From contig JALDAJ010000001.1 in NCBI GenBank assembly GCA_022729235.1, positions 768,001-832,000 on the forward strand: 64,000 nt of DNA, in the 5' to 3' direction. Below are positions 19,732-40,671 of this stretch, piece by piece. Position 1 is the first letter of the stretch. Every line of letters starts with the position of its first letter. The notes below the pieces were generated by a model. That model worked only from the letters and a program-made list of their open reading frames with translations. It was not told where the DNA came from and did no database searches. This stretch comes from Candidatus Nanohalarchaeota archaeon (GTDB taxonomy: Archaea > Nanohalarchaeota > Nanosalinia > Nanosalinales > Nanosalinaceae). Position numbers and translations under genes: made by a program.

Positions 19732-20964
19732 CTATCTTATCCGGTACCGGAGTATCGCTGCAACGCCTCCCATGTTGCTGAGTCGTCTGCCTTCTTCGTG
19801 GTCGGTGGATATGATTTCGAGCCCGGAGTTCATCTCCTCTGCTTTCTTACCGAACACGTCCACTATATCGCTGATGGTTTCCAGATCCATCTCATCGTTG
19901 CATTCATCGCATTCCATATCTTCCTCTATCTCTGGTTTCTCCTCGAATACTTCTTTCTCGTGCCCGTTCGGACACTCGTAGCGCGCGAGAAACAGGTCTA
20001 CATCCTCTGTTATCAGCAGCGTGTCAACCGCACCCATCCCTAGGGCTTTCTTCACCTGTTCGACGCCGTATTCGCTCTTACCGTTCTCCTCTCTCAGGTT
20101 GTCGAAGAACTCGTTGACCAGGTTCTTCTCCTTGACAACTTCTGCGTCCTGTATCGCGTCCTCCGCCTTGTTCACTAGCTCTTCCAGCGCTTCTTCACCG
20201 GAGTAGTTCAGATCCTCCGTCGCAACGACCTCGTCCCGCAGTTCCTGGTGCAGGTGGTCTTCCATGAACTTTTCCTTCGCGAATCCGGGACCTCCTACGA
20301 GTATCCCGAGGAGTTTGTCATCCCTTGCCTTCTGGAGGAGTGCGTTCTTTGCGTTTTCTGCCACGTCGCCCAGGAAGTTTTTCAGCATCTCTTTCCTGAT
20401 TCTGGCGAATCTTTGCGCGGATTGACCTCCTGCCCTCGTTTTTCCGGGTACTTCCGAGGACATTGTGTACTCTGTCTTGATATTCGAGCCCTGGAGGTAG
20501 CCTATGGCGGCGTCGTTCTTGTCTACTGCGATTAATCCGTAGACTTTGTCGGATACGACCATCTGTCTTAGAGGTTCCAGAACGAACTCCTTGTCGCAAC
20601 GGTAGTGCCGGGACTCGATTGGTTGTGGAGGAACAACCTCCCATACCTGTATATCCGGTCGTCCTTCCCGTTCCGACACATTTCCTGAGAAGAACGCGAC
20701 ACCGTTCTCAGGTGTTGTATGCTCTTCCTGCACCTTTCTACCGATCTTGTCAAGCGCTGCCTGAACATTCTTCCGGGTGTGCTTCGACTTGATGTTCTCC
20801 GCCTCTGATGCTTCCGATGTCACGAAGTCTGATATCTTCGACATGTCGTACCCTGCGGGGATGTACAGCGACACTAACTCGGTATTCCTGCCTCTGATAT
20901 CCTCCAGCTGGTTGATGAGCTTCTTCAACTGGTACTTGGTCATGGTCTGTGTTTCTTGAGTCAT
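19732..20964 (-). CDS. prf1: peptide chain release factor aRF1
   Basis: NIKS, YRCDKEF and GGQS motifs; C-terminal zinc-ribbon insert. Confidence 0.97.
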   Translation of the reverse strand: MTQETQTMTKYQLKKLINQLEDIRGRNTELVSLYIPAGYDMSKISDFVTSEASEAENIKSKHTRKNVQAALDKIGRKVQEEHTTPENGVAFFSGNVSEREGRPDIQVWEVVPPQPIESRHYRCDKEFVLEPLRQMVVSDKVYGLIAVDKNDAAIGYLQGSNIKTEYTMSSEVPGKTRAGGQSAQRFARIRKEMLKNFLGDVAENAKNALLQKARDDKLLGILVGGPGFAKEKFMEDHLHQELRDEVVATEDLNYSGEEALEELVNKAEDAIQDAEVVKEKNLVNEFFDNLREENGKSEYGVEQVKKALGMGAVDTLLITEDVDLFLARYECPNGHEKEVFEEKPEIEEDMECDECNDEMDLETISDIVDVFGKKAEEMNSGLEIISTDHEEGRRLSNMGGVAAILRYRIR

Positions 20965-37359: not shown

Positions 37360-37773
37360 TCAGTACTTCTTCTCTTTTTCCAGGTACTCGTCCAGGAAGA
37401 CCATCGCGGGAAGCCCGTATCCTGCATCAGCGTGCCAGTTCATTTCACGGTATTCTGCAGATGTCGCCCAGCGATATTCAGAGAGTTCTCTCTCGTGTAG
37501 TTCAACAGCTGTACTGTCAGTTTCTGTGAAGACTATCCAGCAGTTCACACACTTCTCATCCTCGACTTCAATACGGACGACATCCTCAAAACTCTCTATT
37601 TCCAGACCTGTTTCTTCCCTGACTTCGCGTTCTGCAGCCTCGAACCGATTCTCATCGTCCTCGATTATACCTCCTGGCAGTTCCCATTTACCGGATTCTC
37701 GCTCTTTAACAACTAGAAACTCTCCCTCGTTATTCTGTATCAGTACCTTTGCAACAGGTATCTTCTCGGTCAT
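37360..37773 (-). CDS. Nudix hydrolase
   Basis: LPGG.....E....AAEREVREETGL Nudix box. Confidence 0.9.
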   Translation of the reverse strand: MTEKIPVAKVLIQNNEGEFLVVKERESGKWELPGGIIEDDENRFEAAEREVREETGLEIESFEDVVRIEVEDEKCVNCWIVFTETDSTAVELHERELSEYRWATSAEYREMNWHADAGYGLPAMVFLDEYLEKEKKY

Positions 37774-38174
37774 ACCAGGTCGAACGCCTCCAGGCATCTC
37801 CTCTCCTTTCCAAGGTCTATATCGTAGTCTTGAGGTTTTATCCAGCAGCGCTTCCCGTGCTTGTCTTCTCTCAGTTCTAGGTGTTCTTCTAGGTCTTCGT
37901 AGTCGTGGGTCGCTCTAACCGGGATTATCTTGAACCCGCCTGCTTCCCATGAGTCCTCCTTGCTTGATTCGACAGCTTCTATATCAAGTCCCAGCTCTTC
38001 TTTTATCTCTCTTTCAGCGGTTTCCGTGAGGTTCTCTCCTTTCTTCTGCTTTCCGCCGGGAAACTCCCACATCTCATGGTCTACTCTCCACGTTACCAGG
38101 TATTCCTCTTCTTCAGAAGTACGGGGTATGACTGTTGCAGCGACTCTATTAGTATCGTCCGCGTCACTGCTCAT
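37770..38174 (-). CDS. Nudix hydrolase (MutT-like)
   Basis: WEFPGGK...GE....TAEREIKEELGL. Confidence 0.9.
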   Translation of the reverse strand: MSSDADDTNRVAATVIPRTSEEEEYLVTWRVDHEMWEFPGGKQKKGENLTETAEREIKEELGLDIEAVESSKEDSWEAGGFKIIPVRATHDYEDLEEHLELREDKHGKRCWIKPQDYDIDLGKERRCLEAFDLV

Positions 38175-39948
38175 AGTACTCGCCTTTATCCCTTTGCTCC
38201 TTGTCTTTTTGCGAGTCTGGCTTGTTCGAGCGTGGTCTTCCGGAGTCCGGGTCTTTCCTGTATGTGATGCCGACTTCTTCCAGGAAGGAGTTCATCGCGT
38301 CTCCAATTCTCGAGGGTTCGGAAGATTTTCCCTGGATTCCGGGTTCGCCCTGGAATACAATTCCTCTATCGGAGATGTAGTCGAGGAGTAGGAGGTCGTG
38401 GTCAATCACCATCAGAGGTTTCTCTGTCTTCCTCGCGAACCTTTTCAGTGTCTTTCCAAGTTCCACTCTCGCCTCCACATCGAGATACGCGCTCGGTTCG
38501 TCCAGGAGGTAGACTTCTGCGTCCCTCGCCAGACAGATCGCTACTGCAACTCTCTGCAGTTCTCCGCCGGATAGTTCCTGGAGGTTCTGTTCGTAGTATT
38601 TTTCGAGTTTCAGTGGCTCCGCTATCCTTGTCTTGAAACTCTGGTTTTCTGGGTTGACGTGTTTCCTCAGCGCTTCTTCAACTGTCTCGTCTTCTGGTTC
38701 AATGTACTGCGGCTTGTAGGAGATGTCTATGTCTGGTGATTCACCTTCATCCGGTTTTACGGCGCCGGCAAGCATCTTTGCGAACACGGTCTTACCGAGC
38801 CCGTTCTCTCCGAATATCGCCAGTATCTCCTCTTCATGTAGCTCTCCTTCACTGGTTTCAAGTTCGAACTCTCCTTTGCCGAAGTCTTTGCTGAAAGAGG
38901 GGTAATTGAATACTGTCCTGTTGTGTTCGACCTGTGACCTTTTCGTGCGGTCGAATTTGATCTCGCTGTCCCTGAAGCGGAGGTTGTGGGAGGGTAACAT
39001 TCCTTCGAGGTACTGGTTGATACCGTTTCTTGCGGTCATGGAGTTGGAGACCATCCCGTAGCTTCCTGAGTCGCCGTAGAAGATGTGGATGGTGTCCGCG
39101 ACGAGGTCCAGGGTGGCGAGGTCGTGCTCTACCACCATCACTGCTCGGTCTTCTCCCAGTTCCCTGATTTCGCGGGCGACACGTAAACGCTGGCTGACGT
39201 CGAGGAACGAGGAGGGTTCGTCTATCATGTATATATCGCGGTCTTTCAGGAGCGTGGATGCGATCGCCACGCGCTGCAGTTCTCCCCCGGAGAGCTGGTC
39301 GAGCTCCCTGTCAAGCAGGTGTTCTATGTCGAGTCTTTCAGCTATTTCTTCCACGCTGAGCCTTTCACGCGCATTCTCCAGAAGCTCTTTTACCTGTCCG
39401 TCGTATGCCTCCGGTATCGCCTCGACTTGCTGAGGTTTAAATGCCGCATCTACTTCATTGTTCGCGAGTTTTGTGAAGTGCTCCTGCAGTCCGGTTCCCC
39501 GGTACTTCTCCTGTATCTTATCCCAACCAGGAGGGTTCTCGTAGTCGCCGAGGTTCGGCTTAATCTTTCCCGCAAGTATCTCAAGCGCGGTCGATTTACC
39601 TATACCGTTCTCCCCCAGTATTCCGACTACTCGACCCTCCTCCGGTACAGGTAGTCCGTAAAGCCTGAACGAGTTCTCGGAGAACTGGTGCATCTTCTCG
39701 CCTTCTTCATGAGGCAGTTGCACAAGCTTGATCGCGTCCTCGTAGGGATACTTCTTTATCGCCATCCTGTGAGCTTCCATCACGTCTTCCTCGTCGATAT
39801 GTAGCTCCTCGTTCTCGATGTAGAAACCGCCTTCTTTACCGGCGCGGTTCAAAGGGTCGTAGTTGATAACTGTCTCTCTCGCGAGGTCCGGCTCGATCTT
39901 GTCCTGGTCTACAACGACGATGAATTTCTTCTGTTTTTCCGTCGGCAT
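38164..39948 (-). CDS. abce1: ribosome recycling ATPase ABCE1 (RLI) with cysteine-free N-terminal domain
   Basis: Two ABC cassettes (GENGIGKS, GENGLGKT, LSGGELQR x2); ITYRKD..SGRPR.NK..SQKD tail. Confidence 0.95.
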   Translation of the reverse strand: MPTEKQKKFIVVVDQDKIEPDLARETVINYDPLNRAGKEGGFYIENEELHIDEEDVMEAHRMAIKKYPYEDAIKLVQLPHEEGEKMHQFSENSFRLYGLPVPEEGRVVGILGENGIGKSTALEILAGKIKPNLGDYENPPGWDKIQEKYRGTGLQEHFTKLANNEVDAAFKPQQVEAIPEAYDGQVKELLENARERLSVEEIAERLDIEHLLDRELDQLSGGELQRVAIASTLLKDRDIYMIDEPSSFLDVSQRLRVAREIRELGEDRAVMVVEHDLATLDLVADTIHIFYGDSGSYGMVSNSMTARNGINQYLEGMLPSHNLRFRDSEIKFDRTKRSQVEHNRTVFNYPSFSKDFGKGEFELETSEGELHEEEILAIFGENGLGKTVFAKMLAGAVKPDEGESPDIDISYKPQYIEPEDETVEEALRKHVNPENQSFKTRIAEPLKLEKYYEQNLQELSGGELQRVAVAICLARDAEVYLLDEPSAYLDVEARVELGKTLKRFARKTEKPLMVIDHDLLLLDYISDRGIVFQGEPGIQGKSSEPSRIGDAMNSFLEEVGITYRKDPDSGRPRSNKPDSQKDKEQRDKGEYYEQ

Positions 39949-40047
39949 ATACAAAGAGGTATTATGAAGATTTATTTAGTTCTGGTTGTGGACCTAGTCA
40001 GATGGGTTTCCCGAAAGCAGATAAATGGAGGTGCTCCTTATTTGCAT

Positions 40048-40671
40048 ATGGAATTGGATATTAATGATACTCTAACTGATATCTATCATAAGGCTCAAGG
40101 GCTATCAGAGGAAGAGATTGCGGAACATATCGAGGAAGTTGTAAAAGATGCAATTGAGGAATTTGAAGATTATGGTTTAAAGTTTGAGGATCTCCCTGAG
40201 GTAGAGTACAGCCTTAACAAAGACGGTGCAGATTACAACCCTGATAAGGATAAGATCACGGTAGGTGTCCCTGCGGCGGACGGTGAGTATGTTAAACATC
40301 CTTTGAATGAGGAGGTTGATGAAGAGAAGGATAAGGGTCATGAGGATGTTTATAGGCTCTCTCTTGGAGATGTCCTACGGTACGGTCTTGGTCAAGCTGC
40401 AAGCAACCGTTTGATGGGGGATGACTCTGATGAATCTATTGACGAGGGAATCTGGCAGGCATTTCTCTACCATAATAATCAGGAACGGATGGGGTTCGAG
40501 GAATTCGTGGAAGAACGTAAAGAACAGTACAGAAGTAGAGGCTTGAAGGAGGATGTTTTTGAGGATGCTGCCGATATAACCTACGAACATCTAGAGGGAG
40601 AAGATGTTGACCTCAAAAATATTATTAAGACAGTTTACCATGATTTAGAGGATAATTTAGAGAAGGGGTAA
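40048..40671 (+). CDS. hypothetical acidic protein
   Basis: GGAGGTG upstream of ATG 40048. Confidence 0.65.
   Translation: MELDINDTLTDIYHKAQGLSEEEIAEHIEEVVKDAIEEFEDYGLKFEDLPEVEYSLNKDGADYNPDKDKITVGVPAADGEYVKHPLNEEVDEEKDKGHEDVYRLSLGDVLRYGLGQAASNRLMGDDSDESIDEGIWQAFLYHNNQERMGFEEFVEERKEQYRSRGLKEDVFEDAADITYEHLEGEDVDLKNIIKTVYHDLEDNLEKG

Follow-up and report, generated by a model that had tools for sequence, protein, structure and literature searches.

An ABCE1 without cluster-ligand cysteines: a conserved, cysteine-free N-terminal domain in nanohaloarchaea and its one-cluster relatives

The ribosome-recycling ATPase ABCE1 (RLI) is a textbook iron-sulfur (Fe-S) protein, and its two [4Fe-4S] clusters are described as essential in passages of PMC5105147 and PMC8153317. 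The window analysed here (the whole stretch of 64,000 nucleotides at positions 768,001 to 832,000 of contig JALDAJ010000001.1, Candidatus Nanohalarchaeota archaeon, assembly GCA_022729235.1) encodes an ABCE1 in which all eight cluster-ligand cysteines are replaced. This protein represents a conserved, lineage-wide variant of the family. Its N-terminal domain probably acts as a cofactor-free rigid wedge that would carry out the usual ribosome splitting, a reading to which we assign a probability of about two in three; from the data below we infer its fold, the absence of metal, its activity and the selective reason for the change. The relevant features are as follows.

Window 38164..39948, minus strand: ABCE1/RLI gene, 594 aa, ATG at 39948 (MPTEK...), with matches to NF009945 and to ABCE1 structures in the PDB.

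39709..39948, minus strand: N-terminal domain (N-domain), residues 1-80, homologous to the 2x[4Fe-4S] domain, with 0/8 ligand cysteines (colinear alignments and column analysis).

39844..39909, minus strand: remnant of the first cysteine motif, residues 14-35, DQDKIEPDLARETVINYDPLNR; C1 is replaced by I18, C2 by A23, C3 by V27 and C4 by D31.

39742..39783, minus strand: remnant of the second, ferredoxin-type cysteine motif, residues 56-69, VMEAHRMAIKKYPY; C5 is replaced by M57, C6 by H60, C7 by A63 and C8 by Y67.

39211..39642, minus strand: core of the first nucleotide-binding domain (NBD1), the best Pfam PF00005 (ABC_tran) stretch, residues 105-248 of the 596-aa reading described below.

38329..38916, minus strand: second nucleotide-binding domain (NBD2), approximate residues 345-540, from the second ABC_tran stretch and the 3bk7 alignment; the hinge-2 tail and the stop codon follow.

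The identity of the gene is clear. Its longest open reading frame (ORF), window 38164..39954 on the minus strand (596 aa), would begin at a TTG two codons upstream of the ATG at 39948; all relatives start at the equivalent of this ATG, which is the basis of the start adopted here. Against the NCBIfam profile NF009945 the protein scores 725.9 bits, residues 12-595 matching profile positions 4-589 of 592, and thus exceeds the equivalog cut-off (469) that defines ABCE1/RLI membership. Pfam detects two ABC_tran matches, corresponding to two head-to-tail NBDs with the architecture of ABCE1. The best solved relatives are the P. abyssi ABCE1 (3bk7, E 2e-166) and eukaryotic ABCE1s in ribosome complexes; in the HMMER alignment with 3bk7, residues 9-594 pair with 18-605 at 46% identity. 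The NF009945 and 3bk7 matches bear out the ABCE1 assignment made in an earlier, sequence-only reading of this DNA. The hinge-2 serine (S579) and the NBD motifs are invariant in 29/29 sequences, and the sole cysteine of the whole protein is located in NBD2.

The window gene is the organism's orthologous, and only, ABCE1. The genome is a single contig of 1,027,595 bp, estimated to be 95% complete, and a search of it with NF009945 returns six matches, of which only the window protein is over the cut-off. The sequence-only reading would have fallen with a second canonical copy, and none was found. Nor does the genome encode a separate RLI-type Fe-S domain: the best match to PF04068 alone reaches 12.9 bits (E 0.14), while four archaeal controls pass the cut-off. 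The ferredoxin-type motif CX2CX2CX3C occurs in 0 of its 1,226 crude ORFs. When stop-to-stop frames of at least 30 aa (18,902 in all) were scanned by motif for a second ABCE1 or a split Fe-S domain, 13 hits resulted; every one falls in a short frame (32-111 aa) rich in Cys, Arg and Ser, and they were taken for out-of-frame noise.

Residues 1-80 contain no cysteine. The interval 39710-39948 of the minus strand encodes exactly the cysteine-free peptide that the sequence-only reading had quoted, and the scaffold matches on which it relied (D.D..P, DP.N and K.P...AI...LP) are real in the alignments. HMMER alignments of the N-domain are colinear with P. abyssi 3bk7 and S. solfataricus 6tmf_d; the domain has the canonical length and its core is free of insertions and deletions, and the alignments place at each ligand position the residue listed above. 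None of the eight cysteines of the ABCE1 signature CX4CX3CX3CP ... CX2CX2CX3CP is present (0/8), and the second motif, CX2CX2CX3CP in ferredoxin-type sequences, reads M-x2-H-x2-A-x3-Y-P. Neither PF04068 (Fer4_RLI) nor PF00037 is among the 24 Pfam families listed for the protein at E<=1. Other functional positions can be recognised in the same alignments. P32 and R35 align with P25 and R28 of the S. solfataricus protein, residues that contact uS12 according to passages of PMC7196836, and K66 corresponds to K60, for which a crosslink to S12 is described in part of PMC5105147.

The same domain is found throughout the lineage. The window's family is referred to here as f1; f3, f4 and f5 are related families of the phylum, f3 belonging to the same order. 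Thirty ABCE1 loci were extracted from 41 related genomes, and in the alignment of these relatives, a check suggested by the sequence-only reading, the N-domain is cysteine-free in 28/30. The exceptions are L035 (family f5), with the canonical pattern, and L027 (genome G004), with five cysteines; the single cysteine counted for L011 sits upstream of the start codon, outside the N-domain. A database search with the N-domain alone retrieved 143 proteins. Among the best 120 of these 143, all (120/120) lack N-domain cysteines and none carries PF04068 or PF00037; they come from Nanohaloarchaea, Nanohalobium constans, Nanosalina sp. VS9-1 and Nanohalococcus occultus, together with one partial homologue (P0060) labelled Aenigmatarchaeota. 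The recurrence of the same cysteine-free domain in relatives and database homologues argues against chance or sequencing error. An artefact, whether a pseudogene, a mis-assembly or an unusual code hiding cysteines, has negligible probability: nothing was found in its support, the frame is open and full length on a single contig, the same sequence type occurs in 120 independent database clusters from several sources, and cysteine codons are read normally elsewhere (cysteine makes up 0.79% of crude ORFs, and the XPD helicase has its four).

Judged from the alignments, the cysteines have been substituted and have not decayed, and the N-domain is under constraint. Within f1 the identity of the N-domain is 0.76 vs 0.68 for the rest of the protein (231 pairs), which supports the substitution proposed by the sequence-only reading; within f4 the values are 0.87 vs 0.70 (10 pairs). 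Compared with a canonical relative, by contrast, N-domain identity falls to 0.29, and that of the rest of the protein to 0.49. Conservation inside families combined with divergence from the canonical form indicates a burst of remodelling and, after it, purifying selection. All 28/28 cysteine-free sequences agree at fifteen N-domain positions (Q15, D31, P32, L33, R35, G37, G41, F42, L49, I51, V56, M57, H60, P68 and L78), and E58 and H50 are near-invariant (26/28 each). Three of the former ligand positions are occupied by the same residues in f1 and f4 (D31, M57 and H60); at the other five the replacements are I/A/V/A/Y in f1 vs V/V/A/I/I in f4.

Some ABCE1s retain part of the ligand set. L027 keeps C1, C2, C3, C7 and C8. 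Its three other ligand positions are occupied by Asp (C4), Thr (C5) and His (C6), and the cysteine-free ABCE1s have the same Asp and His; the L027 locus shares its synteny with f1 loci (FtsZ, membrane protein, KH protein, ABCE1). We take the ferredoxin-like cluster to be bound by C4-C7 and the 'ABCE1-type' cluster by C1, C2, C3 and C8, an assignment attributed to Barthelme 2007 and Karcher 2008; on this assumption proteins of the L027 type are one-cluster ABCE1s. A search with the L027 N-domain yielded 24 further database clusters (P0278-P0301). In the 23 that could be analysed, C1, C3 and C8 are kept in all, C2 in 22/23, and Asp stands at C4 in 22; in their precomputed Pfam lists PF04068 is mostly kept and PF00037 never appears. 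When a genome set with one member for each GTDB species was scanned by pattern, 46 one-cluster loci were detected (L063-L108). Two are 36-residue fragments; among the 44 others, C1-C3 are kept in 44/44 and Asp is found at C4 in 42/44. By record title, the 46 comprise 22 Woesearchaeota, 13 Nanoarchaeota/Nanoarchaeia, five 'uncultured Methanosarcinales', two 'archaeon', and one each of Nanobdellati, Acidobacteriota, Nanohaloarchaea (G004 itself) and Halorutilus salinus F3-133. Examples are L100 (CP066683.1:74021-77311) and L080 of Halorutilus salinus, a haloarchaeon in culture (NZ_RKLV01000013.1:4128-7418), and one Woesearchaeota locus lies on a complete chromosome of 736,802 bp. This one-cluster class, which keeps C1, C2, C3 and C8 and has C4 replaced by Asp and C6 by His, is new here.

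The window protein shares with this class both replacements as well as the motifs DP(I/L)NR.G..GF and (T/M)E(A/M)H..(.)A.K.P. It differs in having also lost C1, C2, C3 and C8, which the one-cluster proteins retain, with or without C7. A wider survey covered the best 150 cluster representatives for full-length ABCE1, 116 of which passed the N-domain filter. Among these 116, 86 are canonical, 15 are mis-anchored fragments and eight have other patterns; three have 0/8 cysteines (P0016, P0122 and P0137), one has only C7 (P0124), one keeps C1, C2, C3 and C8 (P0225) and one retains 7/8, having lost C5 (P0131). The remaining one of the 116, P0146, keeps only C4-C7 and is a mirror-image one-cluster form. 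Complete ligand loss is confined, among the filtered representatives, to the nanohaloarchaeal type. The 150 representatives also include a set of longer proteins with 5-6 cysteines in an unfamiliar pattern (P0162, P0165, P0193, P0194, P0206, P0212 and P0239).

The existence of intermediates with the same Asp and His replacements suggests that the two clusters were lost in steps, one after the other. Quick trees were built from the ATPase (NBD) columns only. They place f4 as sister to f1 (support 100/99) and L027 inside f1 (100, 97), in a basal fork without clear branching order. Forcing the 27 cysteine-free rows into one clade costs 23.7 log-likelihood units, with a p value of 0.041 in the approximately unbiased (AU) test. 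The one-cluster proteins of the Woesearchaeota type are scattered among canonical sequences, in three or more places and on weakly supported branches. The Halorutilus salinus ABCE1 is found inside the nanohaloarchaeal f1 clade (97), a position that may reflect either gene transfer or the composition bias of halophiles. In the simplest scenario, the ferredoxin-like cluster (C4-C7) would have been lost once, before the split between f1 and f4; proteins in this state are still found in a single sister genus, in Halorutilus and among many Woesearchaeota and Nanoarchaeota. The ABCE1-type cluster (C1-C3, C8) would then have been lost separately in f4 and within f1; a separate second loss in two nanohaloarchaeal families is probable.

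Loss of ligands in ABCE1 is not part of a wider loss of Fe-S metabolism. Outside the window, the contig carries a suf cluster (about 44.7-50.9 kb), with SufC (339 bits), SufB (737) and SufS (504) each above cut-off and both SufD (202 vs 222) and a SufU-like protein (88.3 vs 92.5) just below. A VapC-like PIN toxin gene lies between sufD and sufS (L057:4729-5106, minus strand; about 47.7-48.1 kb of G000:C1). Fe-S clients that keep their cysteines include Elp3 (CGGGCIYC), a B12-binding radical SAM protein, a TtuA/NcsA-like PP-loop protein and the XPD helicase, which has four cysteines between Walker A and Walker B. The large primase subunit PriL (PF04104), another potential client, gave no match in the window genome, while 4/4 archaeal controls match. 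In the 70 genomes of the phylum set, SufB is found in 48/49 other f1 genomes and 6/8 f4 genomes, and radical SAM genes in 47/49 and 5/8, respectively. Retention of SUF genes and of cysteine-bearing clients indicates that the cysteine loss is specific to ABCE1.

These results also bear on the proposal of the sequence-only reading that the loss frees this lineage from Fe-S biogenesis, or reflects such freeing. ABCE1 is widely seen as a reason why Fe-S assembly is indispensable, and the absence of the ferredoxin-type motif from the crude ORFs noted above would agree with the proposal. It is nevertheless very improbable, being contradicted by the sufCBD-sufS-sufU genes, by the spread of SufB and radical SAM genes, and by the clients, inspected for parallel cysteine loss, that have kept their cysteines. 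Two further observations concern Fe-S assembly in the phylum. Within the phylum, G028 (family f5, locus L035) alone among the relatives has a canonical eight-cysteine ABCE1. This genome (93% complete) has no SufB match at E<=1e-20, yet three radical SAM matches; it presumably uses another Fe-S assembly system. In G003:C71, G067:C15, G055:C54 and G054:C58, SufB is encoded in ORFs of 829-890 aa that match the family in two parts, and the release factor aRF1 of G033 is similarly split within a 941-aa ORF (G033:C3:5232-8003); these ORFs look like intein-type insertions.

How the domain might function can be considered against what is described for the canonical protein. Passages of PMC7196836 and PMC5105147 present the FeS domain as a lever, in which P25, R28 and S29 contact uS12, K59 contacts h5 and K15/N17 contact h44, while K60 forms a crosslink with S12 and the domain is joined to NBD1 through a cantilever (N70, E74, E76); part of PMC3442406 describes it as structural and required for splitting. 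When the ATPase domains of canonical ABCE1 close, the FeS domain, a rigid body, swings towards aRF1 or aPelota in the intersubunit space, after which it parks between h44 and uS12. The window ABCE1 would still be an ATP-driven ribosome-splitting and anti-association factor, its N-terminal wedge lacking [4Fe-4S] clusters and the same rigid body being held by protein alone. The cluster cavities would be filled by aliphatic and aromatic side chains (I18, A23, V27, Y67, M57 and A63), and the invariant Asp31-His60 pair would occupy the site of two former ferredoxin-like cluster ligands. The contacts to uS12 and the S12 crosslink position (P32, R35, K66) and the cantilever Glu81 are retained. P32 and R35 are kept in 28/28 sequences, position 66 is Lys in 26 of them and Arg in the other two, E81 is kept in 27/28, and K65 is partly kept (14/28).

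Structural modelling is consistent with this picture. The full-length AlphaFold2 model has a mean confidence (pLDDT) of 86.9, with N-domain residues 11-70 at 83-92, and superimposes on complete ABCE1 structures in the pre-splitting or free state with template modelling (TM) scores of 0.89-0.92 and a root-mean-square deviation of 2.4-3.1 A over about 598 columns (TM 0.89 to 3bk7). A cofactor-free ferredoxin-like fold of the N-domain, as the sequence-only reading had suggested, is plausible. The selective gain would be that an essential translation factor no longer depends on a cofactor sensitive to oxygen and iron. Passages of PMC3442406 present the function of yeast Rli1 as a primary target of reactive oxygen species (ROS), through its clusters, and the supply of clusters to Rli1 as ROS-sensitive; this makes escape from oxygen or iron dependence a reasonable selective story for the final loss step, and we consider it the more likely reason for the loss.

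Several observations weigh against the wedge interpretation or parts of it. Modelled alone from cysteine-free sequences, the N-domain reaches a pLDDT of only 63.7 and a predicted TM score (pTM) of 0.40, with topology b-a-b-b-a-b; Foldseek matches of this isolated model are weak (E 0.12-1), the top rows being 4Fe-4S ferredoxins and ABCE1 N-domains, and so are those from VIA (best Z 3.9, generic ferredoxin-like folds). The proposed fold is based on homology together with the full-length model, and two cysteine-bearing relatives were part of the alignment behind that model. Several rRNA contacts of the S. solfataricus protein are changed (K15 to L22, N17 to R24, E19 to T26, R2 to F9 and N70 to Q/R77). 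The oxygen and iron rationale does not explain the first loss step, and one-cluster forms occur in metagenome-assembled genomes with titles pointing to groundwater and other non-saline sources. Haloarchaea that share these brines are not known to have lost any of the eight cysteines. The AU support for independent second losses is marginal (p 0.041), the group having been named after the tree was viewed. Finally, another metal could be bound just as well by D31, H60 and M57, together with E58 and H50, which are near-invariant.

The last point leads to the main rival explanation, in which the clusters were swapped for another metal site (mononuclear Zn, Fe or Mn) at Asp31 and His60, possibly with Glu58, His50 or Met57. 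D31 and H60 lie exactly at former ligand positions of one cluster, and the conservation of D31, H60 and M57 in all 28 cysteine-free sequences, with E58 and H50 each in 26, speaks for such a site; the Asp at C4 in 42/44 one-cluster loci, where the His at C6 is kept as well, points the same way. The same conservation would, however, be explained by a buried Asp-His hydrogen bond, H50 is absent from the one-cluster forms, and the four positions of the other cluster are plainly non-ligating (I, A, V, Y). A replacement metal site seems unlikely.

Another explanation holds that the N-domain is a relic and that the role of ABCE1 has been reduced or altered, for example to anti-association or ribosome biogenesis only, splitting being done otherwise. 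It draws on the sister family f3, in which ABCE1 appears to be dispensed with. None of its ten genomes (G026, G029, G031, G033, G035, G037, G039, G041, G042 and G043; 80-93% complete) matches the P0001 query at E<=1e-40, and none exceeds the NF009945 cut-off, the best scores being 71-104 bits for single NBDs. A divergent ABCE1 was sought among the best ORFs of about 600 aa, which proved to be exporters with fused transmembrane and nucleotide-binding domains or DrrA-like ATPases. aRF1 is nonetheless over its cut-off in three of the five f3 genomes tested, and a fourth has it split within one long ORF. SufB was found in 1/10 f3 genomes; the idea that f3 is Fe-S-free was rejected, as radical SAM genes occur in 9/10 of them, with 14-19 in one genus. 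The apparent lack of ABCE1 in a family that has aRF1, and the altered rRNA contacts listed above, would both fit a relic. Against this, conservation of the N-domain exceeds that of the ATPase body in both f1 and f4, the length of the domain is unchanged without core insertions or deletions, and P32, R35, K66, E81 and the hinge-2 serine are all kept. The relic explanation is improbable, and a working, cofactor-free wedge is the reading retained here.

A broader proposal is that the ABCE1 clusters are dispensable scaffolds, shed stepwise by DPANN-type archaea, with the last cluster lost at least twice in Nanohaloarchaeota and ABCE1 itself absent from f3. This is a tentative possibility, on balance somewhat more doubtful than probable. 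If true, archaeal ribosome recycling could be Fe-S-free, and even ABCE1-free, and the textbook link between translation and Fe-S assembly would be contingent rather than mechanistic.

The genomic context adds a few observations. The A-site partner of ABCE1 is encoded elsewhere in the window:

Window 19741..20937 (G000:C1:787741-788937), minus strand: aRF1, TIGR03676 442.5 bits, cut-off 234.7.

Directly downstream of ABCE1, two tandem NUDIX hydrolase genes occupy window 37360..38174 on the minus strand, the first overlapping the ABCE1 stop; the arrangement is common to L008 and partly to L013. On the other side, a divergent ORF (window 39964..40671, plus strand) encodes a very acidic protein of 235 aa without a Pfam match, and tblastn did not find it in six relatives' ABCE1 loci. 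Among those six loci, the KH-domain protein is the only neighbour on the acidic-ORF side of the window gene to give a tblastn match. A KH-protein neighbour of ABCE1 is common to f1 and f4 loci.

Why a mechanical splitting factor carries redox-type cofactors is a question for which structure, redox or ROS sensing, and coupling to iron status are candidate answers. A conserved, single-copy, cysteine-free ABCE1 together with a natural one-cluster intermediate makes the role of the clusters directly testable, and cysteine-free or one-cluster forms occur in organisms with cultured-strain names (Nanohalobium constans, Nanohalococcus occultus and Halorutilus salinus). The suggested passage from two clusters to one to none, with a sister family that apparently lacks ABCE1, is a more interesting result than the cysteine loss alone. 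For protein engineers the domain would offer a worked example of two cubane clusters replaced by a protein core, and for annotation it shows that an RLI label does not imply an Fe-S protein. Full-text literature searches, which left most subscription journals uncovered, returned no report of cysteine-free or one-cluster ABCE1 in nanohaloarchaea, DPANN, Woesearchaeota or Nanoarchaeota; the matching passages of PMC6514570 and PMC8339473 are unrelated to cysteine-free ABCE1.

Comparison with known systems places the window protein closest to canonical ABCE1 (3bk7, and 6tmf for the post-splitting complex). It shares with these proteins their length and the order of N-domain, NBD1 with its helix-loop-helix, hinge 1, NBD2 and hinge 2, as well as the uS12-contacting Pro and Arg, the S12-crosslinking Lys, the cantilever Glu and the hinge-2 Ser. 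In contrast to them, its eight ligand cysteines are replaced, it has no Fer4_RLI or Fer4 match, and several contacts to h44 and h5 are changed. Reduced or absent clusters are also found in laboratory variants, namely deltaFeS ABCE1 (3ozx, 1yqt) and yeast Rli1-C58A, with a [3Fe-4S] cluster. According to passages of PMC3442406, deltaFeS ABCE1 still turns over ATP and Rli1-C58A supports viability, while most ligand mutations are lethal in yeast. In these variants, however, the domain is deleted or a single ligand removed, whereas in the window ABCE1 the domain is kept and appears fully re-engineered under selection. The ABC-F ATPases (EttA, ABCF1 and ARE-ABCFs) are likewise soluble, twin-NBD, ribosome-binding ATPases without an Fe-S cofactor. 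They are nevertheless a much weaker structural match to the window model (TM about 0.5, 16-21% identity), the window protein scores 180.7 against NF000355 (cut-off 380), and ABC-Fs have neither the N-terminal wedge domain nor the hinge of ABCE1.

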